Source of the DNA: Trypanosoma brucei
Lineage: Eukaryota
DNA: 64,000 bases
Reading direction: 5' to 3'
Assembly: GCA_000002445.1 (NCBI GenBank)
Contig: CH464491.1
Coordinates: 2,976,001-3,040,000 of the forward strand
The position numbers were made by a program, and so were the translations under genes. Position 1 is the first letter of the stretch, and every line of letters starts with the position of its first letter. Shown here piece by piece: positions 4,627-33,335 of the stretch. A model generated the notes under the pieces. It was not told the origin of the DNA, did no database searches, and worked only from the letters and a program-made list of their open reading frames with translations.

Positions 4627-4997
4627 GGCAGCTAAAGGGCATGTGGTATAAGTGGTTTAATTTTGTGCTTTCTGCGCCTTTTCCCGGGCGTGCATACAGT
4701 TGCACGTAACCTAGAAGGGTGTCGCTTGCAATTTTCATTTGATCAGCAGTTGGAGCTGTCTTTTTTTTTTCTTTTTCACCTAACATTTAATGGCCACGTG
4801 TGTAACTTCCATTTTCAGGTGTGCCGCGGTGGGGTAGTGCTACTCTGCACGTGGCCTGTCCCGGTGTTTGTCTTTCGCCGTGCGATATATATATATATTT
4901 TTGGGCGTATGTATATGTACATTTGTTCCTGCTTTTGTTTTGTGTGCTGGGCGGAGGTTAGTAGGACAAGAGTGCTGTACGAATTAGATTCGCTAAA

Positions 4998-7515: not shown

Positions 7516-7801
7516 TGTCATCGTTTTTCTGCCGTCGTTATCAATTGCTTGTTTTGCGTTGGCTGACAACGCTTGGCCACTCCCTCTTTCACGCCCCGTT
7601 GTTAGCTTAGACTCTTTGTGCGAAAGCGTTTCTCCCTGACACTTGTCGTTCGTGCTGTTGGGCCCGCCTGTTGGCCATAACAATTTGTGTCGACTCAAAG
7701 AATCAACAAAAAGTAAACCGGGCGAAACAACACAATAGGGCCTAAGCAGACGGTTTCGGAAAAATTCAAAGTAGCAACCGTTAGCCAAGGGGAGCGAAAC
7801 G

Positions 7802-8620
7802 ATGCAAACGTCGCCGGTCCGTCTGGGGGCGCTCATCCGGTACGTATCGTTTCGGCACGCCCCTAAGTTCCGACAGCCACGCCCCGAGGAAGTTATCGGC
7901 CTACCGGTCAAGGAAACGCCGCCTCACTGCGTTCCTGCCTTTGTCCTTCCCGACTTTATCAACGAGGCGGAGGAGCGCGCACTCTTGGCGCTTACGGAGC
8001 CGTGGTTCTCGCGACTTCCGTGCAACGAGGGGCATATGGACGCACTGATACACCATTACAAGGAATTTTATCGATCCTACAAGGGGCTGATGGAGGGTGA
8101 GGGGGCGTGTGGGAGTTGTGAAGACGGATGCCGACATGTGCGTAGGGCTCTCGAGAGGTGTTGGAGCGCGGCAAGTGGATATGTTCCCGCCACGCCATTG
8201 GATGACAGAGTGCATTTCCTGCGGTTGAGCGAATGTGGGTTCATAAGGGCCCATGCCGATGACACCCGCAACTCAAGCGGCATCATTGCCGGGCTGTGCC
8301 TTGGCTCCGCAAGGGTGATGACGCTAACGCACCCCGACCACGCGGGGCAGCGAGTGGAACTCATGCTTGCTCCCCGTGCGTTTTACGTGCTTATGGGGGC
8401 GGCGAGATACAAATGGGAGCACAGCGTTGACTGGATAAGGGATGACGATGAGCACATCGAACGAGTTCGTGGCAGGGTGCCACCGGGCGAGAGATCACTA
8501 GTATTTGACGGAAAGGAAACGGAGTTTAGGCGAGGAGAGCGAACAGCTATTATTTTTCGAGGAGTTTCGCCCCTGGAGTTACTCAAACACAAGACGTTGG
8601 AAAGAAAGGGCCACACATGA
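7802..8620 (+). CDS. AlkB-like 2OG-Fe(II) dioxygenase
   Basis: 272-aa ORF. RAHADD supplies an HxD iron ligand, with downstream His residues (LTHPDH, WEHSV). LMGAARYKWEHSV resembles the AlkB-family G.aRy.W.H motif. Confidence 0.55.
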   Translation: MQTSPVRLGALIRYVSFRHAPKFRQPRPEEVIGLPVKETPPHCVPAFVLPDFINEAEERALLALTEPWFSRLPCNEGHMDALIHHYKEFYRSYKGLMEGEGACGSCEDGCRHVRRALERCWSAASGYVPATPLDDRVHFLRLSECGFIRAHADDTRNSSGIIAGLCLGSARVMTLTHPDHAGQRVELMLAPRAFYVLMGAARYKWEHSVDWIRDDDEHIERVRGRVPPGERSLVFDGKETEFRRGERTAIIFRGVSPLELLKHKTLERKGHT

Positions 8621-8879
8621 AGGGCATGATCCATCTGCACGTAAGCCGCGGCGTTTACCCAAATTGAGCTGTCATTCGCTTTCTCGGTTGGCGTGAATCA
8701 CGCGATAAATGTGTGAAGGGGGCTGAAGGATATTTTAGCAGCCCCCTGGGCGCGGTTGAGTGCGTATCGATAAAAGGGAGGGGGGCTGGGGGGCGGTCCA
8801 CGGCATGGGTGAGTGGAAGGGGACGTTTTGCCTCAGCTGCAGAGTGATACAATGTGCGTGGCCGCCACGTTACCCCCGC

Positions 8880-11760: not shown

Positions 11761-14658
11761 CTGGGAAGAGCTGTCCTCTACAAAGTGCCTTTCCACCTCG
11801 TTTACTTCCCCAACTTTTGCGACATCGGGAATTTAAACAGCCAACTGCGACCCCCGATATTCCGATTTCGACCGAATGCGGGTATCCTTTGATTCCTAAA
11901 CCCTGTAGCTGGCGAGGCCAACCTCCTTGACGTAGTGCTTGGGTTATGACGAATGGTTGCTGCACTCCTTTGTCACGTTCAACTTCTCCGACTCTCCACA
12001 TGGAAACTTTCTAACAACCCCGCCACTGACAGGATGATTCCGCCTGCCGCATCCGTGTCAGCCGCTTCGCCCTATAGGGTTAACCTTGTCCACTGCGCTT
12101 TGCGGGGCTTGCTGGGAGGGTGTCTGGGAGTGTCATCGCTGACTCTCCATTTTGTAACCACTTCGGTTGTTTTTTTCCCCTCTCCTTGTATCCGCACTTG
12201 CTGCGCGGATGGTCAGCCACACGTTTGTTCACGCTGTGTGGCACAGGGACCGCGCCTCTCATTAGATGCTCCTCGAAGTTTCCAGTTGGCAAGCGTCCCG
12301 CAACAAGTCCCCTCCCGCGTGTCAGATTCGCCATCCTTGCAACGGCAATACTTCCTATCTGACAGACTTTTCTCGCGTCTGCCTGTTTTGTGTCTTCCTA
12401 TTCCTCCACGGGCTCCCTCCTTAACTTTCTTCGCCAGTTTTCAACCCTATTCCCCCTTTTCAAATGGGCACGGGGTAAGTCCTCTCTCGAAAATGCGCGG
12501 TTGCAAGCAAAGCGCCTTCGAGCCTCACCACCACAGGTTATGGGTTCGCTTTGCCCTCTCCTTTTCTCTGTCTAGGAGTTTGTGGCCTTCGATCCCACCC
12601 ATTGCCTCGAGGCGATGCGAGTAACTATTTTTCATATCCTCATCACCATCTGGGGTCCCGAACAGGGTAATTGAATATTGCCGCAGGGTGCTGACTTCCC
12701 ACTTTTAGCCAAATGCACACCCCCATTTCGCAATGTTCGCGCGGCGAACCTACAAAATTTTCCCTTTCTCTTAGTCGCGATCTACGCTTTAGCGCCGTTG
12801 TCAACCCCCCTTCCCCGAAGAAACCGTGGGCTCAGGTATGCACACGCTAAGATTGTTGTCTTTTGTCCTGTTTTCCATTCCCCGCAGCAAGGAGTTCACG
12901 TTTTCCAGCGTTTCGTCCGCCACTGCCCCAGGGGAAGATGCGGTTGGGCACCGTACAAACCACCAGATTGCAGTGTCCTAGCCCCAGTTTCAGTAAGTGG
13001 AAACGGTGTGCCTAATCCGCTGGTTGGCGCCACTAAGCTTTGCTTTTGCCGTTTCTGCCTTCGAAAGCACTCCTATTTACACTCATTCCCGCATTTGTTT
13101 GTTTGGGGGGGGGGGAGGGAAGGGAAGTGCCACGCAGTGTCACCAAGAGTTTTTCAAGGTTTTGGCATAGACATGAACAAAGATGGCATCCCTCACCCGT
13201 GGTGGGCGGTTCTTCTTTGCAACGAACCGAATACCGACGGGAAGGTCACTCGTGCGTGTATCTGCCTAGCCTTGAGCAAACCCCCATACACAGCACATTC
13301 CTCGTCACACCCCCGCTCAGTGGGACCGGCGCGCTAGCAGCGTCAGTCTCTTACGTGCTGCGCTGTCGAATTCTAACTCCCCCGCCCGCCTCCACACGAG
13401 TGTATCAGCCTGCAATGCGATATGCGTTGCCGCTGGCTTCGTACACGGTGAAAATAACTTCTCTGTGTGGGCATACGCGGCTTTCCCTATGAGCCGCCGA
13501 TGCAATTCAGCGGTGATGATGTGTGGGCGGCACGGTCTGCGCATGCTCATTTTCGTTGGAAAACACAGTCGCACGCCACGTGCTTCGTTTGGCGTCACTT
13601 ATTGGACGTGCCCGCCCAGCCACCGTCACTCTAAACTGCCCACAAACGGCGAAGATGTATTAGGTTGCCACGATTGCCGCTGCTTTCGCATCGTTTGAGA
13701 AAACGAACGCGCGTCCTGCGTCGCCGTCGAGGAACCAACCCCATCCTTTCCACCTACCGGCAAAAAGAGGCACGCCAGTAAAACGGAAAATGAGATGCCA
13801 AATTACAGAGGTGCGCTGCCTGGCGCGACGGAGTCGCTGGCATCAGTGCATGATAATCGTTTCTGACCGGCACGTGGGGTGCTTAGTAGACCCGCTCCGT
13901 CACTGCGGAAGCACCTCGAGAAAGATTTTGTAGCCACCTGGGGCTGCAAGTCCCCGTACTGACACACGTGAACAAAATCAGAGACCGCGGTTTGGCATCG
14001 CCGTGGCAAATCACGTTGTGCACATAGCATGACCTGTTACCTACGCCTCCATAGCGCTCGGGCCTGGCACCTTGGCTCGCGGAACTGCGACAAGCCCGGT
14101 CCCTCTGGAATCAAATTTCATTCAAGGATGACACCGCCGCTGGAGTGTGTGTAGAAACAAGCGTCCACATGCGGCCCGCGTGCACCCAACTTTACCCTCG
14201 ACACCTAGGAGATCGGAAACGCCAACGAGAACTAAATTAACGTTATTGGGGGAAAAAAAAACACAACCGATGTCGCGTCCTACGGTCCTGATGTGGGGAA
14301 GGAAAAGGGTGACCCCCTGACCGCGGAAAAAATCGTTGGTGAGTGTGCGGTGCATACTTAGGCGTAGCGTATCCCGTACACCTGCGGATGTTTCTCCATC
14401 ACTCGACGTTTGACGCGTTAAAAGTAAAGACAAAACAGTCATACCTTTGGGACGAAAGTTAGGTGCGCTTAAGAAAAAAAAGGGGGGAGGGGCGACCGTG
14501 AACCCTTATCGTTGAAAGAACGAAAGACGCATGAATCGGCTGGGCAAAGATTTGTAGGAGTGTGCCACTGTTATCAATGCCCCTCAGGGGTTCGAGCATC
14601 ACTTGTCAAATCGGTCTGAACAGCGCGAGGCCGGCAAAATTTTGGTTGCCGCCACGCG

Positions 14659-15016
14659 TCGGAGAGGGGTGGGGAGTATGTGGCGCTAGTACCCGCCGTC
14701 AGCATCGCGTGGGCTTATTTTCTTCTGGGTCTTCTTCTGAGCACTTACCCTGTATGAAAGGCTGGAGTGGCAGAAAAGACGTGTCCTTGATTTATGCGTA
14801 CCACACCTGCCTCTTACATTTTCTGTTGTTGCATACGTGTGTGCGGGAAGACGTGGTGACTACTCCGGTCTTCTCGCCGAGCACCTCATGTGCCTTGCTC
14901 GAGTGCTGAGTCTACGCGGCGCGACGGGTGGGCAGTAGGGGGGGGGGCTTGTACATAGAAAAAAAAAACTAGAGCCACCGGATGCTCTTTGTGCGACCCT
15001 GGTGAAAGTGAGAAAG
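14659..15016. repeat. 358-bp direct repeat copy A, in the 3' flank of the sialidase gene
   Basis: Identical by eye to 20249-20607, from cggagaggggtggggagtatgtggcgctag through ggtgaaagtgagaaag. Contains G10 and A10 homopolymers. Confidence 0.9.
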
Positions 15017-15165
15017 AGATAAAGTAAAACCAGTAACCGGAATTATCCGGTGAAGCAGTCGGCCGTGTGTCACCGTCATTCCTAACATGTGACCCCTTAG
15101 AGAGACTGACTCGAGAACCAGAGCGATTTCTATTTGCATTCTGAGTCCGTACTGTCCTGCAGTTT

Positions 15166-17211
15166 TCAAAAAGTGACAACAAAGATCATAGCAGCAAGCG
15201 CCACATATACGTGCGTTGCGTTATCAATTTGCCCGTTGCTGTGACCCTCCTGTGGTTCATCAACAGCAACTAGAGGTGCCTTTGACGGGCATCTAGGCCA
15301 GTACGTTCGCATGAACATCACTTGGACTTCGGCAAGGGTCAACTCCCTTTTGAAAAGAACAGCACTCTTCACCAGTAGTTTTCCATTGGGAGTAGCTTTC
15401 TTCTCTCCATATCCTCCAATATAGAAATGCATAACATCTCGCACTCGCCTAACAGTCTTGATACCGCTTCCCGTCCTCGAGAAGGCGGCACCATCGATAT
15501 TAACAGTGAACAAACCATTGTACATGGTTATCGTAACTTGGTGAGTCTCGTTGTGGATGGAGGATCCAAATGTAGGCACATGCCGGCCCCCAAACGTTAC
15601 GTACCATTTGTCATCCGATGTGTACGACACTTCAAGACACTCGTCGACACTTCCCTCGCTGATGACAACGCCCACAACCGGGATTTTTTCACTCACTCGG
15701 TCAGGCACCTCCACAGTCACCCCAAGTGTAAATTCATAATTTGCAAAGTTGTAAAGCTGAGCCCCCGTGTGGTTGCTCACAGTCCATGTGGCACCCCGAT
15801 TAGGGCCACTAAATAATATACCATTCAATGTTTTCTTAGCCCCAACAGCTTTGATGCTCACGCTGTTATATGTGTCCTTCCACTGATCACCATCTAAATC
15901 ATTCAAAAAAAGCCCAGCGGGTGCATCATCAACACAGTTTACGCGGTCGGTGGCTCCTCTGGTTCCGGAACGGAGCACACTCTCGGTCCTCCATTTTTCC
16001 ACAACCGCTTTTATCTTTTCGAGTTCATGATCTAAATGCGCAACCTTGCCTATGTCATAGGGTACCGCGTTGCTTACCTCATCATGAAAGGTGCCAGTTT
16101 TTTTGTAGAAGTAAAGCAGTTTGCCGTTGCTGTACAGCAGTGTCCCTTCACCATCTATTCCACCTTCAAGAGTGACGTGACCAATATCAAAAAAATGTTC
16201 GCCATCAGATAGCCAAATATTGAGCCCATCCCCATATGAGTCAGTCGACGGTGCGCGCCGGGTGAAAATCAACAACCTTTTCCCTTCAATTGTGACAACA
16301 AGCAAGTTGTGTGATCCACCTTCGGCTGCACCACTGGCCCACACACGCGAGAACGTCCTCTTGGCTTCCGTCCATTCCCTTCCCATATTGATGGATTCAT
16401 AAACAGCCAAGTGACCGGTATACGAGCCGTTGCTCAACATAAGCCTCCCTCCCCATTCAAAGATGTTGCAATTCTCCTTGCATACATGAGCTTCTAGGGG
16501 TGTCGACTTCCAGTGGATACCGTCGTCCACGGAATAAATTATTGTGGGTACGTCTTCGCTATTCTCGTTCTTTAAACAAACGAGAAATACAAGTAAACCC
16601 CCTTCAGTGACGATTGCATCCCTTCTTCCTCGGAAAAACTTGTTCACTGGCCCCGCTTGAAGTCCAGTGGGGAAGACCCCCTTCAACGGCACCTGTTTGT
16701 TCCACTCTACACCAGCTGATTGCGAAAAAAAACCTCTCGACCTTACAACTTTCCCAGAAATTAGAAGGAGACTATCTTTGCACTCACTTATCGTTACCTT
16801 GCCTAAGCCATCGCCTTGCACATCATACCCGCTTGCAAGCACATACACATTGCTCCCTTTGGCAACTACTTCAAGTGGTATTGGATAGGAAGAATACTCC
16901 ATCTCCTTTCTTCCTTCAATTATGTTGTCCTTTTTCCATGTCCTCCCCCCATCTATGCTCGAAAGTGAAAACGTTCTTAGCCTTACTTCACCAGCCAGGT
17001 GATATCTGAATTCTCCGATTGCAACCAACACACCTTCAGCCTCGACGACGGAATGAATATGTACGGCATCAACGACGGAGAGCAAGAAACTGCCCTTTTC
17101 TTCCCCGTCGAAAAGATCAAATTCATAAACATCCGGTGTCTTAGCAATACTACGTGTCCAGCCGATGTTGCACAGGACAAGTAACAGTAAAATGAGTATT
17201 TGCATTCTCAT
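15166..17211 (-). CDS. Trans-sialidase / sialidase-family surface glycoprotein
   Basis: 681-aa ORF, the only convincing minus-strand gene. N-terminal signal peptide MRMQILILLLLVLC. Three Asp-box motifs S-x-D-x-G-x-T/E-W (SIDGGRTW, SVDDGIHW, SINMGREW). C-terminal lectin-like region and hydrophobic GPI-anchor-type tail (VALAAMIFVVTF). The FRIP-like motif is altered to FRYH. Confidence 0.85.
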   Translation of the reverse strand: MRMQILILLLLVLCNIGWTRSIAKTPDVYEFDLFDGEEKGSFLLSVVDAVHIHSVVEAEGVLVAIGEFRYHLAGEVRLRTFSLSSIDGGRTWKKDNIIEGRKEMEYSSYPIPLEVVAKGSNVYVLASGYDVQGDGLGKVTISECKDSLLLISGKVVRSRGFFSQSAGVEWNKQVPLKGVFPTGLQAGPVNKFFRGRRDAIVTEGGLLVFLVCLKNENSEDVPTIIYSVDDGIHWKSTPLEAHVCKENCNIFEWGGRLMLSNGSYTGHLAVYESINMGREWTEAKRTFSRVWASGAAEGGSHNLLVVTIEGKRLLIFTRRAPSTDSYGDGLNIWLSDGEHFFDIGHVTLEGGIDGEGTLLYSNGKLLYFYKKTGTFHDEVSNAVPYDIGKVAHLDHELEKIKAVVEKWRTESVLRSGTRGATDRVNCVDDAPAGLFLNDLDGDQWKDTYNSVSIKAVGAKKTLNGILFSGPNRGATWTVSNHTGAQLYNFANYEFTLGVTVEVPDRVSEKIPVVGVVISEGSVDECLEVSYTSDDKWYVTFGGRHVPTFGSSIHNETHQVTITMYNGLFTVNIDGAAFSRTGSGIKTVRRVRDVMHFYIGGYGEKKATPNGKLLVKSAVLFKRELTLAEVQVMFMRTYWPRCPSKAPLVAVDEPQEGHSNGQIDNATHVYVALAAMIFVVTF

Positions 17212-20200
17212 TGCGAAAAACTCTTAGGGTACGGAAATAGTCTCCCTGCAGATGTGCGCGGTGTGTGCTTGATCGTTGTGAGGGCACCCTGAGTACTTTG
17301 GCGGTGGTACTCTTCAACTGGCTGCGTGCGGGTAGTGTTTTACAGAAAGGGGACAAATTACCTAACTTATGTATATAGCCGAAAAAAAGGGGTGACAACA
17401 CAGCACTTACAAACGGTGACATCATAAATATTAGGTACGAATGCTTATGTAATATGTAGCGGTGCCCTCAAATACTGAAGCGATCAAGGAACCAAAGTTG
17501 GTTTTGCACCACATCGGTGAGAGGTCCCCGATACGTCATGCGAGCCCCTAGAAGACTGCATTAACAGTGACAGGTCAATGCACTAAGATATCCTGAATCA
17601 CCGGCGGTGTATAGCTTGGCAAAAACTTCTCGCTTCCACTATTAGTTGCTGCAAAATTTTGCACGGCACTTGAAAAATATGTGGTATAAAAGCAAAGAAA
17701 AAGTGTTCGAGCCAAAACGCATTGCACCGAAACACTGTCTTCTCCCTCACCCCAACCCTGCTACGTTAACAGGTCACCAAAGTTCGTCACCGAACAAGGA
17801 CAAGATGTTCATTATTAGGAAGCAACTAATCCTTATGCACCTCGAGTTGCAGAAACTATTTCTTTTTTTGGCACCCGAATAACCCAGTGTATTACAACTC
17901 TTTTTTTTAAAAAAATGAAGTAGTAATAGCCTTTTCTCCATTAGTTTTATTCGTCCATATGGCGAAATTGAACCTGTCACTTGCATATAGCCAATCTTTC
18001 TTCACCCATCGTCGGCGTGCGTTTTCACATTTACTGCCCACTTGTGTGTAAAGACGGACGCACGAAACAATGGTTTGCAGGACAACGAGGGAAATCAAGC
18101 CATACCATAGCCGCCTACTTTCTAAACCATCTCGTATCTGTTTGCACATTCAAGGGGAATGGTTATTTCCCACTGGCTGCTACAGTCAGTGAATCGTAAT
18201 AAAGACGCTACACGGGTATTGAAAGCACAGGCGAAAATACGTAGGACAACATCTAATCGACACAATCTTCGCGGCAATTATAGTCTTTTCCCTACAATGG
18301 GAAACGCACTCCGCATGGTGACCCGCGTACAAACGCATGGATCTGCGTTTGTGCATGTTTGTTAAAAAAAAAACAACAAACAAACTATGTTAGCCCATCA
18401 TTTCAAAGCATCCATTTGCCGTAAGAAAGGTAAGCCCAGACCGCGGTTTCCCCACAACTTACCGCCAACACGAAGCAGCCGCTCGCAGCCGCGCCCCAAC
18501 GCAAACGCATGGGACCTCTCGCCCGTTGGGGCGTGAGAGGTCCCCGTGAGTTTCGGTGGGCAGGCGGGGGTAACAACGTGAAAGCTCCCTCCGCCCATTT
18601 CTGGGCTATGATGAAATATTAGCTCCGCCACCCCTCCTGAAGCTTCCCTTCCGCATACCGGGCGTCGCTTGCTGCCACCGCGAGGAAATACGAATCACCG
18701 ACGACATATCGGCGGGTGTGGTGGGGGAAGCCAGGGGGTGGACAACTAAACAGAGTGGTATCCCAACAAAGCGCAGCTGGCCCCCCGCCGTCCGACGCCG
18801 TAGCTTGCGAGCAAGGGGGGACCGTTACGGAGATGAGGAATGCTGGTGGTTCTTTAGTTATCCCATACATACGGGACAGCGGGCCCAGCGTCATGAAAAC
18901 CCCTTTAAAACGCCTAAAGGGACGGAAGCAGCGACTGTTGGCCCCGAAGCACGCCCACAAGAGCATGGAGGTGCCTTGGAGGGCGCTCCGCAGACTGGCA
19001 TGCAATTTCTTTGTCCTTTTAGTCGTGTTAACCCCTCACCTTTTCCTGTGGAAGGCGTGTCGGCTGCTGATCTGAACGAAGCGGTGAATGACCACTGCCA
19101 CTCCCGGCGCTTGGACGAGCGGCCAATTAAGGGCATGACCTTCGCAAAGAAAGTTGGAGGGCCGGGGCGCTATATGGGAAAACCCCCCTCGACGACGTGA
19201 GGAAGCTGTCGCACACGATTGAATCTAGTTCCGTGAGTTTCCCATGAAGGTCCTTAATATGTTTTGATTTCGCTCCAGAAGCTTACTTCGCAACCTTTGA
19301 GTGATTGATGCGCTTTCGCAAAGATTGCTCCACTTTCACCTGTTAACATCCTCGCTCTTTGAATTTCAAGGGTCACAATCATTAGGTTTCGAGGAATCAC
19401 TCAAAAAAACCTCTACCAAGCCCGGAAAATTCCCCTTCCAGGTGCTGTCAGAGGAAGTGCTGCTTCCGAGATGCGTGGTCCTTTGTTCGACCCCCTCCCG
19501 TCCCTCGAGAGGGTGTCGTCCACTCCATCTTTGGAGGAATCGGATAACGGCGCCCCCGTCCTTTACAGCGGAAGAGTTCCTCCTCCCAACGAAAGTTCTG
19601 CCCTAGCACCCAATTTACTGGCTAACGACTGGGAATTTGCCGTTCCGTGTTGGTATTGAGTACTCCCTCCACTTTAACCCTTCTTGATCGCCATGGCTGT
19701 GCGTCAGCTTTGTTTCGACCGCTTTGCAAAAAAAGAAAAAAAAATGCCATCCCCTCCCGAGCCGTCCTCCGTGCTCCTTCGCCGAGGAAAAGCGTATTTT
19801 ATCTGCCGGGGCCGGGAGCGCCTCTAGGGGAAGGAAAATAGCGTAAACCCCCTCGCCAGCGCGGTGGTAGTTGGTGGTGGCACTAGCTCAAACAGGTGCG
19901 GAGCTCGCACAAAACTTGTTGTAGGTTTTTTTTTCGCGAGGATGGGCATCGTCTGGCAAAACCGAGAGGTGGCGAGCGCCGTTGCTATTGCCCCCAAAAC
20001 TGGGAGACTTCAGTCAGCGGTGTAGCGATTAAGGATGCGACGCGTACGGTTGTCGCCGCCGCTCCTCCGGTTCCCAGGTTCCCTCTTTCCGAAAAAAAAT
20101 TTGTTCAGTAAGGCAATCCCACTGGCAATTCAGACCTGCCGTCTCTTTGTTTCCTACAGTGAACCTTCGTTATTATTATTATTATTATCACAATAGTTGT

Positions 20201-20248
20201 ATGTGTGAGGTTATCCGGAGTGCGCGTGACTCAGCCGAGCGTATGGGC

Positions 20249-20607
20249 TTCGGAGAGGGGTGGGGAGTATGTGGCGCTAGTACCCGCCGTCAGCATCGCG
20301 TGGGCTTATTTTCTTCTGGGTCTTCTTCTGAGCACTTACCCTGTATGAAAGGCTGGAGTGGCAGAAAAGACGTGTCCTTGATTTATGCGTACCACACCTG
20401 CCTCTTACATTTTCTGTTGTTGCATACGTGTGTGCGGGAAGACGTGGTGACTACTCCGGTCTTCTCGCCGAGCACCTCATGTGCCTTGCTCGAGTGCTGA
20501 GTCTACGCGGCGCGACGGGTGGGCAGTAGGGGGGGGGGCTTGTACATAGAAAAAAAAAACTAGAGCCACCGGATGCTCTTTGTGCGACCCTGGTGAAAGT
20601 GAGAAAG
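20249..20607. repeat. 358-bp direct repeat copy B, about 3 kb upstream of the sialidase gene
   Basis: Identical to 14659-15016. The flanks diverge immediately outside the repeat. Confidence 0.9.
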
Positions 20608-23600
20608 TTTCCAACGGTCTATTCTCGGGTTACCTCTTCTGGATTTTTACCGAAGTAGTCCCGCTGTCTTTACATGTGCGTAGCGACGCTGGTTGCCGCT
20701 GCATGTTTTGTCTTCCGTCTTAAGGTTGCGGTGGCCCAAAAGTCTACAAGCTGTTTGGAGGCTACTGTGGCGCACGGCGTCTGTTTTGTGGCCCTGTCGA
20801 ATGTTGCTTTTTGTCATTTGTGTTGCGTGCATGTCGTGAGCGGTGGATAAAGATATGCGACATTTACAGTATATGCTGGTTTCAACAGGTAATGCTGGTG
20901 CCTACTAGGTCGTAAAATGTCGTTACGGGACCTTGCAAATTTTGGACGGCGTCGAATAAGAGGAGTGCCGAATGCAAAGGTGTTGTTGCACTAACCTTAG
21001 GAATGCGAAAATTTCGTGTTGAAGTACCTGCTGCATTCGCATACAGGTAGAGAATTGGTTGATAATACTTTCCGGCCTCCGAGTTACGTCACTCTGTTAG
21101 AGAGCAGAGTTGATTTTTTATTAATGTGGCAATCGGGACGTATATGGTACATGTCAACCCCTTGTTGCCACGGTGAGGTCTGTGACAGGTGTGCGTGCTG
21201 TTTTCACGTTAGAATCGTGTAATAAGTGTTTACAAGGTTGGGAAATCTGACATTTCTTCCACCCAAATTCTCAAACGCGTTTCCTCGTATGGAATCTGCG
21301 TTGGTTTTTGGTTGATTTGTATACACAGGACTAATGTTTTTTGTACTCGACGGTGAGGGTTGCCGGAAATATCAGGATGGTGTTAATAACCCTCCCCCCA
21401 TCAAGGATAATAAGCAAAAGGAGGGAGGCGGGAGCGGGGGGCCATTTGCTGACTGTTTGGCCTTTGGCGCGGAGAGGGGCTTGACGAGGTACAATGTGTA
21501 GAAATTTGAAACTTTTGTTTTCTATCATTGGAATTATATATATTTCTCCGTGTAGTGAAATGATCCTTTGACGGAACTTGAAAGTTTTTTTAATGATCTC
21601 TCTCTCTGTTTTTGTGGAGTAGCAGCCGCTTTTCTTTCATTTACTTTGAATGTATTAATGTGCTTAGGGGAAAAGACGCTTACTCGTGTTTCCCTGCTGG
21701 TACACTCACCGACATTTTATTAGGACAAACACACCCGCGTATATAAACAAAACAATTTTGATGTTGCGGCGGTTGCTACTGAAACAATGGTGCCAGCCAA
21801 ACGGTGGATGACTGGGATAAAACTTCGATACCATTGTGGAACGAGTAGAGGGGAAATAAAGTTGGTGCTGCCCTAGCCGTCCCAGAACTCTTTAGATCCA
21901 CCCCGCTGGGACGACCCCATCTGTATACCATGGGATGTGATACCCAATTGGCACTCTTTTTGCATTTCCCCCCCTCCAGGATAGGAGCCGGGGGCGTTTA
22001 TCATGCTCTTTTAAAATTTCTGTTGATAGGTCTTCACCATTTTCAGAAAAGAAACAAAACAGTTCGTGCAGGCAGGGTTCCGTTCTAAGTCGCTTGGACT
22101 GGGAGCGGACTTGCTAAACGTGTCTGATTTCTGACACACTTGGTGTGATCGTCACCGTAAACACAGACGTCTTGGCGATGCTCCCCCCGTAACTGGCTGA
22201 TTGTAGGTTGCACACATTTTGCACGGCTTGTTACCACGGCGTGTGAGGGAGGTGCGATACTAACGACCATAGAAAAACAATCGAAAAAAAGGTCCGCCCC
22301 TTCGTTTGCCATGAGTGAGATTATGTGAGCTACCTCAGCGATCTTTCCTGGATTCAGTGAGAATGCGTATTGAATCCTATTGAGACCCTAGGGATGCACG
22401 GCGGTGTAATTGTCCATAGATGTCTATAACCCGTGGTACATTTCCAAGTAAGGTATGTTGAACGCATTCGTTTATCGGTCGTCCGTTTAGCAATGGCCAA
22501 GAAGGGTTAAAAACTCAAGACATTGGAGCCTTCGCGATTGTGGTGTGGGGAATAATGACGTATACATGTACGTAATGTTCGACGGCATTTGGCCCATCTC
22601 AAAATGGAGTTCGTTTTGGTGGGTTCGGACTAAACATGGACTTAATTTATTAAAGACGGTGAGCAGATGATTTGTTGCAATACGTAAATAAGTTTCCCCA
22701 AGGAGAAACCTGGCGAATATTTTTGGCATGTGATAGCATATTAACCGTCAAATGTAACACCCCATTCAGCGGCAAAACCTCTTTCTGAAACCTTGCTCGT
22801 TCGTTTTACTACCATCACGCTCATATCCGGCCCTTAAGGGGCTGAAAGGTTTGCAAGCGGCTCCGTCGATAATTTCCTATCGACGTGGTCTATTCGCATA
22901 GCATGTGTTGTATCATACTGTGTTCATTTTTGTCGATGGGTGCATGTGTGTGGGCGCTTCGTATTTTTTCCAATTTTACTTCATCCGAGCAACGAAGTCA
23001 AATAACACCATTCGAAGCAAACTATGGAACCCCTGCGTTGTCATCGCAATTTAAGAAGTAGACTATGCACGTGTAGACGCTAACACCCCCTTTTTTTTTT
23101 GGGGGGGGGGTGATTGATTGAAAATATTGTTGTTGACATTCCGATCATTACTTTGGTTACCGGAGTGGCAATCCCGCCTGAAAGCGTCGCGCAGGTAAGC
23201 CTTTTTATCATTATGTATGCGTTTCGGTATATATATATATTAGGCTCAGTACTTGCCGTCTCTGTTTTACTCGGGTTATGGCTGCTGCTACCCTACTGTT
23301 ACCTTGTTATTTGTCAGCGGTTGGGGTCTCTTCATTTTTACAGTGGAGGTGCTTGTGGATAAGAGGCACCTACGAACTAACGTAGGTTTGTACCAATCAC
23401 TCACTCATGCCATCTGCCATGAGGCGGGTGCTAGCGGAGATAGGCACGTCTTTCCCGTAGAGTAACCTGCGCTTTTTTGACTGCTGCGGTGTTTGGTTAG
23501 TGCAATCTACAAGTTTACGTGATTATTTGTGGTAGTTCCTTTTTTTTTTTTGAGGAAAGAAAAGTGTCTTTGCACCATAACGCTGTATCCAAGCTATTGC

Positions 23601-26300
23601 CGGCGCCATGGAAAGATATTTTCATATGTATATTACATACAACTTAATTTCCAGGGAATGCGCTCAGTGTATGAATGCTGTACACATTCTTTTTTTTTTT
23701 TGCATTCTTTGCCTGGAAACAGCGGTAAATGTGAACTGCCTGAAAGTGTGTCTAAGTTATTTTTTCCATTCACTTCACCGCCCAACTCGGTGTGGTTGAG
23801 TTTCCCATGGCCCAGTCGGTGTGATATCTGTTATTACATATTTTTTGCGACCATTTTGTTTCGCGTTTTCTACTTGAGCATGTTATGACCATGACCACCA
23901 AAAGGATCAGAATTACCATTTCCCACTGTGTTTTTCTCTACTAACGCCTCAACGCCAGTGCCGCGCCAGCAAACATCTTATATCATAGGGGAAGAATTGT
24001 TTGCAGTCTGAATCAATTGTGTTTGGGTAGTACTGGATCGTGCTCCTGTTTTCACATTTTGAGATGTTGCGAGTGAAAAGGATACCAAGGGACCGCTTAC
24101 CGGCTTCTACTTACTCGGCCGCGGCTGTACGCCTCTTGTAAGCATATTCTTAAGTTGCTCCCTTTTCATGTCTCGGGTGGGTGTTTAATGAAATCGGTTT
24201 ACAAACTACTAGATTGCACTTCAGATGATAGGAGGGAGCTGGAACTCAAGACAGTTGGAGTGCCCGTTTCTGGGTAGCAAGGGGGGGGGGGGAAATTGAT
24301 GTTCTTTGTTCTAAGAAGTTGCTTTTGTATGCGGGATGGAGGTTCGACAAGGCTTCTGCTTTGCGGTAGAGGTTGCTGTTAGCACTGATTTCACTCGTAC
24401 TTGGGGGGAACCCTGCCATTAATAAGCAGTATGTTTGAGGGAGCAGCTCATCTTTCTTATTATTGTGCAGTGCCCCGTTCCACCTTTCTGCTGGGTCCGC
24501 GCAGTTCTCTCAGCAACGTGTGCGCGGATCTAATCCATAGATTCAAGGAACGAAGTCTTTTTCGACGGTCATAGCTGTTGAACTTCCGGCTCGGTTGGGT
24601 CATGAGCAGTGAATCGTGGTAGCGGTGCACCAGAGGTGTGGGTCTCTGTTACAATTTTAAAGGTTGCTATTGGTTTGCACGATCACATCAGAGTTGACAC
24701 AGCACTTGCACTCCTGCTGGGGTCCAGGGTGTATTGAGTGACTTGCACCTTCCTGGTGCCGTCGGTTACCGGTTCCTGCGAAAAACTTTTTGGCACGTGT
24801 TGACGAACCCCGCTGCTGGTGTGTGGTGTTCTGTGCAAACTTTTTTTTTTTGAGCAGCACTAATTTCCAGCCAGCTGAGGATCTTTTCTACAGCAAAGTG
24901 GGGAGGGCAGGGAGACCTCGTGCTGGGACTGATGAAAACGCGCTTTCTTAAAAACATGGTTAGTGTACCGCTCTCCTTGTTGTTCCGAAAGCGAGTATGT
25001 TTCGGAGTTGTCTTGCCTCCAGCAACATGATTTGCAGTGAATTTCAACTGCTAAAAACAATGTGAATGCCCAAGGCGTAACATGCTTGCTGTTCCGCCAA
25101 ATAAACTAGTGTGTGATTGTGCTAAAAGGAAATGCAAAAGGATTTGAAACCTTACGTTCAGATCTTAAAGAACTGTGAGACCCCTTTTTTTCTGGATGGC
25201 ACTCAATTACTTCCCTGGTTGGAGGAGTCACAGTTACAACCTGGCCAACTTACATGTCGTAGTACAAGCCCCCCTTTCAAGAAGGTAGCTCTGGGTTAAG
25301 CAGAAGCTGTTATGTGATGCCTGCTATTTATACCGCGGTTCTGACTCACTTCTTTTCGTGCTATCAACAGCGGTTTCTTTGCACTGGTCGACGACTAGTG
25401 TGATTTAACGGGAATTTGTTGTGGTAGGTAGCCGAAATTGGCTTCAGGTGCATCACGTAAAATTCCTCACCAGTTGTATTTTCGTCGGCACATCCTCGTC
25501 ATCGGAATCTGTTGTCGCACTACCTTGAGTGGATCCGTGACAGAGTGGGTAATTTCCGGGGCGTTGTTCTGGTGCTTACTAGAGTGGGCTCGTTGTTTTC
25601 AAGTCAAACATATCTTCAGGATAAGGGGCGCCAATAGGCACGTGGCTACCCCCTCCCCTAGTGAGAGGATTTGTCGCGCTTTTGGCGGGTGTATCCAGCC
25701 GTTTTTTTTTTGCTGAACCGCTACGGCTCGTGGGGCTTGGCATTATGCTGGTGCCGAGTGCCTATGCTTAACAGAAGAGTCGGCAATCGTTAAGTGTCCC
25801 CTGTGTTGCTGAAGGAGGGGTCTTCTGGTGAACCGGCTCCGTTTCGCTAAAGTTCCCTTAGTTTTCGGCGGCGGCGTTACGTGGTCAGAAATTGTTGTGA
25901 TTACTGCCAAGGCACTGCGGTAGTTGCTGTGTTAACACGCTCAGGGACTACTTAATCTTTTACTGAGCTGTGCGCTCTCGTGTTTGCACCGTTCTCCATG
26001 GGTTGCCTAACGGAACAGCACTGTGTGCGGCAAGTCGAAGGAAGTAATTAGCCATGCAGGTGAGAAGATGCCACCCACACCAAGTGGTGATGTTACTGGT
26101 TCCGTGGGTGGTTATATCGACTGAAGCAAACAAAAACATATGGTTATAGTATTGGTTTTCGCAACTGTCGCTTCAGCTGCGGCGGCTGACGAGGCCCACA
26201 GGCTGTGAAGCACTCGTCGGTGTCGACCCTTTTTATCTTTCTTGAGACCGCACTTGTCAAACATTTCATCTTGATACCCCTACTTGTAGGCAGCGCGGCG
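20608..26300. other. About 5.7 kb ORF-poor, non-repetitive region; candidate divergent strand-switch / transcription initiation region
   Basis: No ORF over 120 aa in any frame. Complex sequence with scattered G-rich and poly-T tracts. It lies between the minus-strand sialidase gene and the downstream + strand gene cluster that starts with the cullin gene. Confidence 0.4.
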
Positions 26301-26703
26301 CCTTTGTGGTTTGACATTTGGCACCACTAAACATGTGTGTTGTTGTCTCAGGGTTCGGTCCTCCGGCTACGTTTAACGGGGGTTATGTGAGAATGATAGG
26401 GGAGGGTTTCCGTTTTTTCGCCACCATCTGGGTGATGTGGGTGGTGGCGTTATCAACTGAAATACAGTTGCTGTTTGCGCGCGCTGGCGTCAGCAAGGGG
26501 GGATATCGTTATGGTCTTAGTACTTTTATTATTTTACTCGCACAAGTGTTTCTTGGTACGGAATGGAGTCGTACTCTTCGTATCAAGTTTCTTACGCTTT
26601 ACCATTGCTGCTTAAGTAAAGAAAAAAATAATCACCATTATGATCTGTATCTGTTTGTACCACGCTTCAGTGAAGGCTCAAGGTTATCTACGTAGTAATA
26701 CAC

Positions 26704-29160
26704 GTGTATATTGCGCGTGGGAGGAGAGGCGCTGGTAAACGGATGGAGCAGACCAACCATGACGATGTCAGCTCTGCTGAAGTTGCGAGGGCTTACTCAG
26801 GATCTTTGGGTGCATCATCGTTTCAGTTTACTCCCCTTTGGGAAAGCGTTGACTACGTTTGTAGTATTATACTAAGTTGGTATGACTTCCCTGATTTCAA
26901 AGGTGGAGAGGCGCTGCAACAGCTTGTGCGTGCGTACACAATCGTCTGCCGGTTAGTTTCTTCCCCTTGTGCTGGGTGCCCACCACTCGCTAGACCCTCA
27001 GTGGAGGGAGATATTGTTACTGCTGCTGAGGTTACGCAGTCTTTGGTGGTTTATAGCCGTATCTGCGATATGATACGCAAGAGACTGGATACCGTAGTTG
27101 GAATGCGCTTCAGGGATGCTGCGGAACAGCCACCCCCACGTCTTCTGGAGGACTACATTGTCGAATGGAAGAGGTTCATTACTTCCGTCAATATGCTGAA
27201 ATTCGTATTTTCTTATCTCCACGGACCATGGCAGAAATATGGCGTACCACCTGGTCTCATGCAGTCCACTGAGGTAATTGCCCTCAACAAGTGGAGCGAA
27301 ATGTTAATGAACACTAATTTTCAAGAGGCCCTTACCAACCAGATTTTTGAGCTTGTTGCCATGGATCGACATCACCATCCAAACATGGAAAGGGCTCAAA
27401 TTCTTCGGGAAGTGGGCCATGCTTTGGGTGTGGTAAGTGACGCAAGGAGTAACTGGTATGTTACCCTTGTGGAAGAGCGCTACCTCCGACAATTAACCGA
27501 TTTCTGTAAGCTTAAGACTGAAGAGATGAAACTGGGTGATGTTGAGCACTATATTGAAGAAGCCCTCACCATTTTCAGGGATGAGACGGAGCGCGCCATT
27601 CGCTTGCTGGCGCAGAGCTCGATACAGCCGGTGGTCCAACGAATAGCTGAGGTGCTCATCAATGACGAACTTTCATTCTTGGATGAGTTCATTTCCAGTG
27701 AAATAGTTAAAAATAGGGTGACTCAGCTGCGCCAGTTATACTCGTTGCTTTCACAAAGTCAAGTTGGACTGAGACATTTGAGGGATGAATTTAAAAAGTG
27801 TGTCATTGAAAAGGGGCGTCGTGAAATCAATGAGGCGTGCGAAAGGGCTAAGAACTCGAATACTGGCGTTTACCAAGTTGCCCTTGAAAAAGTTATTTCA
27901 GTGTACAGGGATTTTCAGTTACCAATGAAGGCCTTCGGGGATAAGGGGGATTTTGAGAAGGAGCTCATTGATGGGCTTCATAATGTCTTAACAGCTTGTT
28001 CCTATCTTGACCCCCAAAACATGTTGGGACGTGAGGTGGCGCGATTTGCTCACAACGAACTGATTTCCAGAAAATTGGGGGTCCGCTGCGAAGAAGACGA
28101 AGGAAATATGAATAACATTGTTATATTATTTCGCGTTCTTCCCACAAAGAACCTGTTTGTGGAAACATACCCTATGTACCTCTGCTCACGGCTCCTGTCT
28201 ACTGAGTATGTTGTTGAAAACGAGCGGTTGCTTATACAGGAAATAACACAGACGGGAGAATGCACGAGAGATTTTATGAACAAGTGCGCAACGATGTTGA
28301 ATGACGTGGGGGAAGTCAGTGAGAGGCTGTCAGAACAGTTTCGAGAGAAGGCGGGACTGACGGATTTGAACTTCCACCCAACTGTCCTGAATAGCTATTT
28401 CTGGCCAAATTTCTTACCTGAACCCGAGATGGCTATTCCTGGTTACTTGCAGATGAAGTTGTTGGAATTCGGGAAGTTTTTTCAGGATGTGTGTCCGAGA
28501 CGCCACATCAGCTACGTCAACAGGTTATCACAGGGTGTATTGAGGTTTAACCTTTCTGATGCTTCTCCAGTGCAAGGCTTGGACATCTGTGTGGGCGTCC
28601 GGCACCTACCGGTTGCTGAGTTATTCAACTGCTGTGCCGAATGGGAGCTTCAGGAGCTGATACAAAGTGTAGGAAATGATAACTCTAACAGCTGTTTAAG
28701 TGCTATAAATGATTTTGCGAAGCACGGTATACTCGATATTCACGAGGAGGGAGGTGTGACGTTGAAAAGCCACTTGCGGGAAGTTCTTCCAGGCTGCCGT
28801 GTTTCCATCGGACGCACGCCCGACATCAGGAACAGAAAGATAGTTTTGCATGAAACGAAGCTCGATCGAGAGACCAAAGTGGATGGAGCAGGTTCTTCTG
28901 ATTTCTCACCAGAACGCTACGATGTTAATACCACCACAGAGCAGATGGTAGCATTGTCCACACAGGCCACGCTTATTCGTGCGTTTAAAAGTGAAGGGAC
29001 TGCTTCTTTTTCGCAGTTGTTCGAAAGAGTCGAGAATGAGTCACCGGCGCACTTAAAGCCATCGATCCAACAGATGAAAGTAGCCTTGGAGTTTCTCATC
29101 AGCCGTGAATTCGTCCGAAGAAATGAAGACGGTACAGACACGTTTTCGTACGTTACATAA
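26704..29160 (+). CDS. Cullin
   Basis: 818-aa ORF. Cullin-repeat body and a C-terminal neddylation/winged-helix region (..IQQMKVALEFLISREFVRRNEDGTDTFSYVT). The true start may be the internal Met at 26743 (MEQTNHDD). Confidence 0.75.
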   Translation: MYIARGRRGAGKRMEQTNHDDVSSAEVARAYSGSLGASSFQFTPLWESVDYVCSIILSWYDFPDFKGGEALQQLVRAYTIVCRLVSSPCAGCPPLARPSVEGDIVTAAEVTQSLVVYSRICDMIRKRLDTVVGMRFRDAAEQPPPRLLEDYIVEWKRFITSVNMLKFVFSYLHGPWQKYGVPPGLMQSTEVIALNKWSEMLMNTNFQEALTNQIFELVAMDRHHHPNMERAQILREVGHALGVVSDARSNWYVTLVEERYLRQLTDFCKLKTEEMKLGDVEHYIEEALTIFRDETERAIRLLAQSSIQPVVQRIAEVLINDELSFLDEFISSEIVKNRVTQLRQLYSLLSQSQVGLRHLRDEFKKCVIEKGRREINEACERAKNSNTGVYQVALEKVISVYRDFQLPMKAFGDKGDFEKELIDGLHNVLTACSYLDPQNMLGREVARFAHNELISRKLGVRCEEDEGNMNNIVILFRVLPTKNLFVETYPMYLCSRLLSTEYVVENERLLIQEITQTGECTRDFMNKCATMLNDVGEVSERLSEQFREKAGLTDLNFHPTVLNSYFWPNFLPEPEMAIPGYLQMKLLEFGKFFQDVCPRRHISYVNRLSQGVLRFNLSDASPVQGLDICVGVRHLPVAELFNCCAEWELQELIQSVGNDNSNSCLSAINDFAKHGILDIHEEGGVTLKSHLREVLPGCRVSIGRTPDIRNRKIVLHETKLDRETKVDGAGSSDFSPERYDVNTTTEQMVALSTQATLIRAFKSEGTASFSQLFERVENESPAHLKPSIQQMKVALEFLISREFVRRNEDGTDTFSYVT

Positions 29161-30438: not shown

Positions 30439-30711
30439 ATGACGCAGCTCCCCTCAGCAACCATTAAGCTCATAGAGATGCCGAAACATATGGAGAATTA
30501 TGCCGTTAACTGTGCGCAAGATGGTTTTACGAAGTACTACACCGAGAAGGACGTAGCCTCTCATATCAAGAAGGAGTTTGATAAAAAGTACGGACCAACG
30601 TGGAACTGCTTCGTTGGACGTAACTTTGCCAGCTATGTTACCCACGAAACGAAACACTACATATATTTCTACATGGGGCAGATGGGTGTGCTTCTTTTCA
30701 AGTCGTCATGA
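30439..30711 (+). CDS. DYNLL: Dynein light chain LC8
   Basis: [46 protein letters not shown] is near-identical to the conserved LC8 core. The ORF track starts earlier at 30316, but the LC8-length product begins at Met 30439. Confidence 0.9.
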
Positions 30712-31802: not shown

Positions 31803-33335
31803 ATGAACTTTCCCCTTCAATTTTCACTGAACACACCCCTCCCTAGTGCTCAATCGCGCGTGATCGTGACGAGAAACGGTTATGGCAGGCCAGCTGTGTG
31901 CTATCTGGTGGTTTTCTTGAAAAGTTCATACGAACTGTTATTAAAGGTTGCGCTGCCCGTCGGGGAGTCCATGCCAGCGATGAAAAATAATTGTGCCGAC
32001 ATACGGCAAGCAACAATTGAGTGGTTTCATACCAATCAGCGCCGCGACCTACCGTGGCGACAGACATTTTCCGACACAGATGCGTGTCATCCGGTGGTAC
32101 CCGTTGTTACTCCTCTGACTGATCCCTATCATGTGTGGGTCTCAGAGGTGATGTCGCAGCAAACGCAGATGGACACTGTCATTCCCTACTTCAAGCGATG
32201 GATAGCGGTCTTTCCGGATATTGCCACTTTGGCTCGAGCCACAGAGGCGTCTGTCATGGCGGTTTGGTCGGGCATGGGCTATTACCGCCGCGCGCTGTAC
32301 TTGAAAAAAGGCGCAGAACATGTCATGAAGCACTTTGGGGGCTCATTGCCAACTACTGCGGCTCAGCTACGTGCAATCCCTGGTATTGGCCTCTACACTT
32401 CGGCGGCTATTGCTTCCATTTGCTTTCGTGAAAGAATTATTTCAGTGGACGGTAATGTTGTGCGTGTTTTGAGTCGGTTGCGCTGCGAGAGAAATTTTGA
32501 CCCCAAGTCCGCCAAGAGTATCAAAGAAGTATTCCACTGGGGGCAGGAAATTATGGGGGAGGGTCCTTGTGACCGCCCCGGGGACTTCAACCAAGGCTTA
32601 ATGGAGATTGGAGCGAGGGTATGCAAACCGTCCGGCAGGCCGCTTTGTGAGGAGTGCCCGCTTCACCGTTATTGTGGGGCATACGCCGCAATGCAGAGCG
32701 GTGAGATACCTTCCATTGAGGGCGTCATTCCACTGAGAGCGAAAACACTCAAAAAGAAGAAAGAGCATGTTTTTTGCTTAGTTCATGAATTTCGAGAGAA
32801 AACGGCGGGTGACAGTGCGTTGAAGCGGCGCTTCATTGTTGTACGGCGTCCAGAAGAAGGGCTCTTGGGCGGTATGTTGGAATTCCCCTCCAGGACGTAT
32901 GTTTCTTCACCTGATGGTGGTACTGACATAAAAGGGAGCAGAGACGTTACCGATGAGTTGCGCAAGAAACTTGCTGCTGGACACAAAAATGTAGTGGAGG
33001 TCGGGCATGTTCAGCACATATTTTCCCACATTGATATGCGTGTGCTGGTCTATCACGCTGTCTGGGATGGGCCGTCGTTAGATTGTGGTGGCTACACGAG
33101 GGGCACGGACCCCAGAGTTGCTGCTCGACGCCCTTCCGAAGAAAAGATATGCAACGCCCTGAGAAGAGAGCTTTGTCTGGACTCTTCACGCATTTCCGTG
33201 AAGACGGAGGAGGAGATAAAGGGTGCTGCTGCTAGTCGCTTGTTGCTGAAAATACTTGACAAGCTAACTCCACTTAATTCCGAAGGGAGGGTGCGAAAAC
33301 CATCAACGAGGAAACGACCTAGATTGGCCGGATAG
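31803..33335 (+). CDS. A/G-specific adenine DNA glycosylase (MutY homologue)
   Basis: HhH-GPD region (VSEVMSQQTQMDTVIPYFKRWIAVFPDIATLA..., IPGIGLYTSAAIASICF), a 4Fe-4S loop (CKPSGRPLCEECPLHRYC), and a C-terminal NUDIX-like domain. The likely true start is Met at 31971. Confidence 0.8.
   Translation: MNFPLQFSLNTPLPSAQSRVIVTRNGYGRPAVCYLVVFLKSSYELLLKVALPVGESMPAMKNNCADIRQATIEWFHTNQRRDLPWRQTFSDTDACHPVVPVVTPLTDPYHVWVSEVMSQQTQMDTVIPYFKRWIAVFPDIATLARATEASVMAVWSGMGYYRRALYLKKGAEHVMKHFGGSLPTTAAQLRAIPGIGLYTSAAIASICFRERIISVDGNVVRVLSRLRCERNFDPKSAKSIKEVFHWGQEIMGEGPCDRPGDFNQGLMEIGARVCKPSGRPLCEECPLHRYCGAYAAMQSGEIPSIEGVIPLRAKTLKKKKEHVFCLVHEFREKTAGDSALKRRFIVVRRPEEGLLGGMLEFPSRTYVSSPDGGTDIKGSRDVTDELRKKLAAGHKNVVEVGHVQHIFSHIDMRVLVYHAVWDGPSLDCGGYTRGTDPRVAARRPSEEKICNALRRELCLDSSRISVKTEEEIKGAAASRLLLKILDKLTPLNSEGRVRKPSTRKRPRLAG

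Follow-up and report, generated by a model that had tools for sequence, protein, structure and literature searches.

The question raised by this locus is what occupies the stretch, free of any long open reading frame (ORF), that separates a minus-strand trans-sialidase gene from a plus-strand gene cluster headed by a cullin on chromosome 11 of Trypanosoma brucei TREU927, and that a preliminary description of the DNA had placed at positions 20608–26300. All positions are given relative to the window, that is, the whole stretch of 64,000 nucleotides that was analyzed, which corresponds to Tb927_11_01_v4 2,976,001–3,040,000, such that a window coordinate is the Tb927_11_01_v4 coordinate minus 2,976,000. 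As detailed below, the interval is very probably where a polycistronic unit of RNA polymerase II begins, next to a divergent strand switch, as transcribed but non-coding sequence. We note that both a published map of transcription units and a transcript catalogue have included the locus since 2010, and that it is to this extent already known and ordinary.

The trans-sialidase and cullin genes are divergently oriented, and the DNA that separates them holds no supported gene. This arrangement has a direct counterpart in the map of RNA polymerase II units published by Kolev et al. 2010 (PMC2936537, Table S14), in which units are labelled "putative". The map lists a plus-strand unit from Tb11.01.2880 to Tb11.01.3200 ("Internal"), Tb11.01.3240 alone on the minus strand ("Divergent"), and a plus-strand unit from Tb11.01.3260 to Tb11.01.3790 ("Divergent"), or, in terms of gene order, one unit ending at the 2OG-oxygenase gene, one consisting of the trans-sialidase gene by itself, and one starting at the cullin gene. 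The same paper states that 5′-triphosphate RNA reads are enriched at every divergent unit; both this enrichment and the unit starts are taken from the paper as published. Thus, the divergent strand switch with a polymerase II start that the preliminary description had proposed is borne out by "Divergent" units on both sides, as well as by a flip in GT fraction and 10-mer content and by runs of ten G on the plus strand, to which we return below.

Table S7 of the same paper (PMC2936537) further lists four consecutive plus-strand "novel transcripts", Tb11.NT.129 to Tb11.NT.132, which are trans-spliced and polyadenylated, measure 1.3–2.2 kb each, and together extend over 19708–26535, covering the interval nearly gap-free (Table 1). 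Each mapped 5′ end is immediately preceded by AG with pyrimidine-rich sequence upstream, and the gaps between transcripts are only 39–94 nt. The preliminary description had offered a long non-coding RNA as an alternative content of the interval, and this too finds a basis in the four mapped spliced-leader, poly(A) transcripts that span it. Among the supplementary tables of Kolev et al., the four appear in the full list S7 and nowhere else, and thus none of them is entered among the transcripts with conserved ORFs or peptide support. These tables catalogue no plus-strand transcript between 8.6 and 19.7 kb, and Table S2 (PMC2936537) records no detectable transcript for either Tb11.01.3220 (11953–12624) or Tb11.01.3250 (19000–19200), the latter being a 66-aa ORF inside the core of the switch as defined below. 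The transfer of published coordinates to the window was checked in several ways: Tb11.01.3220 at 2987953–2988624 and the MutY gene Tb11.01.3270 at 3007803–3009335 in the list of Kolev et al. coincide exactly with the ORFs at 11953–12624 and 31803–33335, respectively, all seven of the published transcript 5′ ends in the window (7/7) sit directly after AG with pyrimidine-rich sequence upstream, and the trans-sialidase, cullin and 2OG-oxygenase proteins match TREU927 EAN80094, EAN80096 and EAN80092 exactly.

The composition of the two strands allows the position of the switch to be narrowed down. The plus-strand GT fraction lies below 0.5 from the trans-sialidase gene to ~19 kb, is 0.50–0.51 at 19–20 kb, and rises to 0.53–0.60 from 20.0 kb, with the GT-richest bins (0.57–0.59), which also contain a G10 run, at 20.0–21.5 kb; for 17212–19707 as a whole it is 0.48, which resembles the minus strand. 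In start regions, G- and T-rich 10-mers are known to occur on the coding strand, above all at the 5′ end (Wedel et al. 2017, PMC5579346), with G10 as by far the leading 10-mer (132 coding vs 17 non-coding occurrences in the first fifth; Dataset EV1, PMC5579346). We therefore scored strand direction by counting the 157 coding-strand 10-mers of Wedel et al. on each strand of the window, and obtained +0/−6 in 17212–19707, compared to +28/−7 in 19708–26742. The flip from minus-like to plus-like character in both measures falls at ~19.7–20.1 kb, where the first plus-strand splice acceptor is found at 19708, indicating that the two directions part at ~19.7–20.1 kb. The switch itself thus lies at 17.2–19.7 kb, to the left of the interval, with 17212–19707 as the likely zone of separation between the two units, and the interval forms the transcribed leader of the plus-strand unit. 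We also considered the density of these 10-mers as a marker of start regions and rejected it, as there are 3.5 per kb in the interval vs 4.96 per kb in downstream spacer; since the density is no higher than in spacer, the 10-mers give direction and not start-region status.

Turning to the block itself, the preliminary description had stated that no reading frame in 20608–26300 exceeds about 120 aa, that the sequence is neither simple nor low-complexity, that runs of G10 or longer occur at about 23.1 and 24.28 kb, and that this is the largest non-coding block of the window. The longest stop-to-stop open frame of the six is 121 codons, compared to a median of 127 codons (5–95% range 100–170) for the longest frame in 300 shuffles of the same sequence, such that the ORF lengths are those expected for non-coding DNA. 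Tandem Repeats Finder detects no tandem repeats in 8–30 kb, and the interval has a GC content of 0.464 with a GT fraction of 0.563, a GC skew of +0.09 and a TA skew of +0.16. The same composition is seen in the non-coding sequence within the downstream plus-strand unit (GC 0.461, GT 0.556, GC skew +0.09, TA skew +0.13). Plus-strand G runs are present at 23101 (G10) and 24281–24292 (G12), with a further G10 at 20529, just left of the interval; such runs also occur left of the trans-sialidase gene, at 13105 and 14938, and the density of runs of at least six G in the two ORF-free blocks is ~4.5 times that of the remaining window. These first statements thus hold as made, while the last holds for the outstanding length and not for the extent: the remaining intergenic gaps in the window are all below ~2.6 kb, which makes the block exceptional, and yet its full reach, with no open frame above 160 aa, is 17212–26742 (9.5 kb), of which the interval is the right-hand part. 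The start at 20608 is the first base past the second copy of a 361-bp repeat and coincides with no gene boundary, that of the trans-sialidase gene lying 3.4 kb to the left.

Comparison with related trypanosomatids places the switch in an evolutionary frame. The chromosome of T. b. gambiense DAL972 is collinear with window positions 5189–27213 at 98.6% identity, and over the interval it differs by 11.4 mismatches per kb plus 20 gap columns, compared to 2.4–5.9 mismatches per kb in complete coding sequences; the interval therefore diverges 2–4 times faster than coding sequence, like other spacer. The sole ORF annotated within the interval in DAL972 (109 aa, 21787–22117) carries a stop codon and a frameshift in TREU927 and straddles the junction of Tb11.NT.129 and Tb11.NT.130. 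In Phytomonas sp. Hart1, two tandem cullin genes, a dynein light chain gene and a MutY gene lie on one strand, with a GDPD gene on the opposite strand 2.15 kb upstream of the first cullin, and the GT fraction flips from 0.39 to 0.54 inside this gap. The presence of the same divergent switch before the cullin in Phytomonas indicates that the unit began at the cullin before the Trypanosoma/Phytomonas split, and the difference between a gap of 2.15 kb there and 9.5 kb here indicates that the T. brucei block is an expansion. The locus is also a synteny break with respect to L. major, in which the counterpart of the ATG12-like gene of the upstream unit is LmjF28.2720 and that of the dynein light chain gene of the downstream unit is LmjF28.2130. 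Metagenomic kinetoplastid contigs that were retrieved through the dynein light chain lacked a cullin neighbor and were uninformative. We note that the tandem Phytomonas cullins (3727–8743 of the Hart1 stretch compared; 796 and 800 aa) are 22–23% identical to the single TbCul-E of T. brucei, and that tblastn detected no remnant of a second cullin in the T. brucei window.

Table 1. Positions of the genes, transcripts and sequence elements discussed in the text, in window coordinates.
Feature	Position	Strand	Remarks
2OG-oxygenase gene Tb11.01.3200	7802–8620	+	last gene of the upstream plus-strand unit
Convergent, termination-side block	8621–15165		from the last gene of the upstream unit to the trans-sialidase 3′ end
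361-bp direct repeat, copy 1	14656–15016	+	starts 150 nt past the trans-sialidase stop codon
Trans-sialidase gene Tb11.01.3240 / Tb927.11.11410, 681 aa	15166–17211	−	Pfam BNR_3 and TS_C; identical to EAN80094/XP_829206
Core of the divergent strand switch	17212–19707		trans-sialidase start codon to first plus-strand splice acceptor; GT 0.48
Tb11.NT.129	19708–21885 (v4 2995708–2997885)	+	Table S7; 0.25 RNAs per cell; holds repeat copy 2 and a G10 run
361-bp direct repeat, copy 2	20247–20607	+	inside Tb11.NT.129; G10 at 20529, A10 at 20550
Tb11.NT.130	21980–23839	+	Table S7; 1.85 RNAs per cell; holds the C5-T10-G10 tract
C5-T10-G10 tract	23086–23110	+	inside Tb11.NT.130
Tb11.NT.131	23879–25166	+	Table S7; 2.15 RNAs per cell; holds the G12 run at 24281–24292
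Tb11.NT.132	25225–26535	+	Table S7; 1.41 RNAs per cell; immediately precedes the cullin mRNA
Cullin gene TbCul-E, Tb11.01.3260 / Tb927.11.11430	26743–29160	+	Pfam Cullin and Cullin_Nedd8; identity to the T. brucei protein

On the basis of these observations, we propose that the polymerase would start over a broad, motif-poor zone at the divergent switch and run both ways, with the two directions parting at ~17.2–19.7 kb. The minus arm would yield the trans-sialidase mRNA only and end in the 8.6–15 kb block, whereas the plus arm would be a long unit with the cullin TbCul-E as its first protein gene. The transcript of 19.7–26.5 kb on the plus strand would undergo trans-splicing at AG behind pyrimidine tracts with coupled polyadenylation and, since this segment holds no reading frames, the products of processing would be four low-abundance non-coding RNAs ahead of the cullin mRNA. 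We infer that these RNAs arise for the most part as by-products of obligatory processing, and not as regulators. Initiation is probably concentrated around 19–21 kb, and the fact that Tb11.NT.129 is the least abundant of the four would fit many initiations taking place downstream of its acceptor site. As start regions are generally 5–10 kb wide, the whole of 17–27 kb may be expected to lie in a chromatin domain containing H2A.Z/H2B.V; the supplements of PMC8551723 and PMC9566855, consulted with regard to H2A.Z, H4K10ac, RPB9 and SPARC, do not mention the genes of this locus.

Several considerations weigh against the assignment of the interval to a polymerase II start region. The start-region label rests on one published table of "putative" units together with sequence features, and GT-richness alone cannot separate a start region from plain transcribed spacer. 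The lack of function in the four RNAs is an assumption, since the comparison that suggests it covers very close relatives only. In addition, the trans-sialidase gene has been described as reverse-oriented "within a polycistronic transcriptional unit" (PMC10064699), and while we take this wording to describe how the gene is oriented, and do not count it against a start site, it would also fit transcription reading through the locus.

Such read-through would mean that there is no start site here at all, and that a single plus-strand unit extends without a break from a point upstream of 8.6 kb, antisense through the trans-sialidase gene and into the cullin, with the interval being simply a long spacer. 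This would be in keeping with the plus-strand G runs at 13105 and 14938 and with a composition of the interval that is that of ordinary within-unit spacer, and yet Table S14 divides the locus into three units, two of them "Divergent", the catalogue is empty of plus-strand transcripts at 8.6–19.7 kb, where Tb11.01.3220 and Tb11.01.3250 are silent, and plus-strand bias is absent at 15–19.7 kb. Furthermore, there is a trans-sialidase mRNA from the minus strand, for which a separate start is required, and a divergent switch is present at the equivalent position in Phytomonas, such that we regard unbroken transcription as the least probable of the explanations considered here. It is unlikely, although less so, that Tb11.NT.129–132 are functional genes for long non-coding RNAs, acting for instance on trans-sialidase or cullin as regulators, and that the stretch has been kept for their sake and not only as promoter-proximal spacer. 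They are discrete spliced-leader-capped, polyadenylated RNAs that are present at 0.25–2.15 copies per cell, compared to a reported median mRNA level of ~3 copies per cell (PMC2936537), in an organism with at least one long non-coding RNA of demonstrated function and ~1,400 candidates (PMC9200285), and a 358-nt sequence of Tb11.NT.129 also occurs just 3′ of the trans-sialidase gene, on the transcript path of the other strand. However, the substitutions and indels relative to DAL972, at 2–4 times the coding rate and thus like spacer, give no sign of constraint, Phytomonas runs the equivalent switch with a gap of only 2.15 kb, the four RNAs stand only in the full list of Table S7, and Rfam gives 0 matches at gathering thresholds in the whole window and 0 at E ≤ 1 in 8600–27000. 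ARAGORN likewise finds 0 tRNAs in the window.

In trypanosomes, strand-switch regions and synteny breaks often gather lineage-specific genes and retroelements, and this counts in favor of the stretch being a decayed gene or retroposon (ingi/RIME/DIRE, or a copy of the trans-sialidase or cullin gene) that has passed beyond the stage of open frames, as do the synteny break relative to L. major, the size of the block, which far exceeds that of its Phytomonas counterpart, and the gene-like processing signals retained by the four RNAs. The preliminary description had mentioned a heavily decayed pseudogene or retroelement as an alternative, for which none of our searches provides support. A Pfam search of all six frames of 17212–26742 at E ≤ 1 returned no reverse transcriptase, endonuclease, sialidase, cullin or other domain, save for a chance match to Rz1 (E = 0.14), and small ORFs of both ORF-free blocks gave no Pfam match; when ten small ORFs were compared with annotated proteins for exact identity, a counterpart was found for the 223-aa Tb11.01.3220 alone. 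Clear tblastn matches to a known element or gene had been named beforehand as the sign of decay, and tblastn with 19 window proteins and four Phytomonas proteins (the cullins, MutY and GDPD) gave short, noise-level matches only, with a best E value of 0.02 in either ORF-free block and 0.24 within 17212–26742. A decayed second cullin, as might be left by a tandem pair of the Phytomonas type, was ruled out on the same grounds. A 22-nt retroposon 5′ hallmark, which provides only a weak test, had 0 matches with up to 3 mismatches, and the ORF-free block holds no internal repeats beyond the 361-bp pair. Overall, we consider decay of a gene or retroposon to be highly improbable as an origin of the stretch.

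The preferred reading of the locus as a divergent polymerase II start can also be set against known systems. Like other divergent transcription start regions of T. brucei (Siegel 2009; PMC2936537; PMC5579346; PMC9566855), this one has genes that diverge from a gene-poor block several kb wide, no focused promoter motif, and only "hypothetical" ORFs within the block, and this exact locus is labelled "Divergent" in Table S14; it differs in that the minus arm is a single trans-sialidase gene and not a long cluster, and in that this gene sits in a 5.6-kb cassette flanked by the 361-bp direct repeat. Tb11.NT.129–132 share with T. brucei long non-coding RNAs (the "novel transcripts" of Kolev et al., and "grumpy" of Guegan 2022, PMC9200285) an intergenic position, low GC, low copy number and the lack of a supported reading frame, but differ in showing no sequence constraint relative to DAL972, and whereas "grumpy" is a single RNA beside its target, these are four RNAs placed end to end at the head of a unit. 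Mammalian dispersed bidirectional promoters of the CpG-island type, a comparison drawn by both Kolev et al. (PMC2936537) and Wedel et al. (PMC5579346), are similar in their broad, motif-poor, two-directional, chromatin-defined initiation and in having non-coding RNAs near the start, but in the present case the RNAs made near the promoter receive their cap by trans-splicing and are polyadenylated in the manner of mRNAs, and one start serves dozens of genes. Finally, ingi/RIME/DIRE remnants at strand switches resemble the block in position and as lineage-specific expansions at a unit boundary and synteny break, and are unlike it in that no trace of reverse transcriptase or endonuclease, 5′ hallmark or repeat copies was found here.

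The trans-sialidase gene, whose ID Tb927.11.11410 comes from PMC10064699 and which is reported there to be poorly expressed in procyclic forms, deserves separate comment. The two copies of the 361-bp repeat, which is GT-rich (0.58) and contains G10 and A10 runs, enclose the 5.6-kb cassette that carries it. Both copies are present in T. b. gambiense DAL972, and they differ from each other by 1 nt in TREU927 and by ~3 nt in DAL972; seven sites have changed between TREU927 and DAL972 in both copies alike, which points to gene conversion, with the copies evolving in concert. The T. equiperdum contigs break at this repeat. The published antisense primer AE1095, used for quantitative reverse-transcription PCR of trans-sialidase, maps to 15072–15093 on the minus strand, 73–94 nt past the stop codon, from which it follows that the 3′ untranslated region reaches at least to 15072, which leaves 56 nt between this point and repeat copy 1. 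On the minus strand, a pyrimidine tract of the form T10...C10 follows at 14968–14938. In the table of small interfering RNAs (siRNAs) from convergent units (Tschudi 2012), there is no entry at 2.984–2.991 Mb of chromosome 11, and siRNAs at the trans-sialidase locus are thus unsupported.

It is conceivable, although very unlikely, that the GT-rich 361-bp repeats are a portable promoter or boundary module and not a passive duplication, with silencing of trans-sialidase by antisense transcription or RNA pairing. Copy 2 is placed at the head of the plus-strand start region, and copy 1 could, if the module exists, launch plus-strand antisense transcription across the trans-sialidase gene or, alternatively, a trans-sialidase read-through RNA could pair over ~358 nt with Tb11.NT.129. 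Both routes would produce double-stranded RNA in a species whose RNA interference is functional, and could explain why trans-sialidase is near-silent in procyclic cells and rises ~21-fold (log2 4.4) on depletion of ZC3H41.

On the far side of the trans-sialidase gene, the proposal in the preliminary description that 11.7–14.6 kb is the matching convergent or termination side fits the published data, as the upstream unit ends at Tb11.01.3200 and Tb11.01.3220 is untranscribed. Within 8621–15165, the ORFs tested had no Pfam match and tblastn yielded noise-level matches only. This block contains a 1.47-kb dispersed repeat (11727–13191) that holds the untranscribed 223-aa Tb11.01.3220 ("T. brucei spp.-specific protein") and recurs, at 98.4% identity, ~89 kb upstream at Tb11.01.2860 (9775–11247 of the stretch compared). 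The upstream copy is likewise located at a boundary of two transcription units (an "Internal" start precedes Tb11.01.2880), and a 9.5-kb gene-free stretch then follows. T. equiperdum OVI has ~430 bp of extra sequence (11372–11801 of its contig piece) at window position 13330/13331, and the version of the hypothetical ORF that it carries has 237 aa and is the same as TREU927 Tb11.01.2860 rather than Tb11.01.3220, which suggests an exchange of sequence between the two repeat copies. The segment at 9000–11500 is a purine-rich plus-strand block (GC 0.39–0.45) with several broken ORFs of 68–142 aa that resemble fragments of charged proteins and have no Pfam match; it is also the fastest-diverging segment relative to DAL972, at 20 mismatches per kb, and may represent a gene in decay where the upstream unit ends. 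A C5-T(7–10)-G7+ tract occurs twice, at 8872–8894, just past the last gene of the upstream unit, and at 23085–23107, in Tb11.NT.130, which may be due to chance, given how such low-complexity runs recur.

At the other end of the interval, the preliminary description had named a cullin as the head of the plus-strand cluster at 26.7 kb, and Pfam confirms this. The ORF spans 26704–29160 (818 codons) with an ATG at 26743, and the gene ID Tb927.11.11430 and name TbCul-E are taken from PMC12816148. Elsewhere in the window, the ATG12-like gene (97 aa, 7222–7515) and the dynein light chain gene (90 aa, 30439–30711) are shorter than the ORF-length cut-offs used; they correspond to Tb11.NT.128 and Tb11.NT.133 of Kolev et al., and had no annotation in the gene set of 2010. 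Orthologues of them are present in both T. cruzi and L. major. A 1,259-bp segment with a 318-aa WD40 gene is tandemly duplicated at 2232–3490 and 3537–4795 (99.6% identity), and is present as a single copy in the T. equiperdum contig, probably from collapse of the pair during assembly. Lastly, a 658-aa plus-strand ORF at 41839–43815 contains internal repeats of ~315–321 nt, whose copies are 63–96% identical to one another, and is strongly biased towards purines (GC skew +0.3, TA skew −0.4); the long antisense ORFs that overlap it are probably artefacts of the repeats.

This locus shows that a polymerase II start region of a trypanosome can be recognized from raw sequence alone, by way of gene orientation, the absence of ORFs and G runs. 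What is seen here agrees with the general picture of start regions as broad, GT-rich and defined by chromatin, and adds little to it. Of use to specialists may be the growth of the T. brucei start region from ~2 kb to 9.5 kb, the minus arm of one gene that is a trans-sialidase cassette within a repeat evolving in concert, and the 1.47-kb element that is common to two unit boundaries ~89 kb apart.

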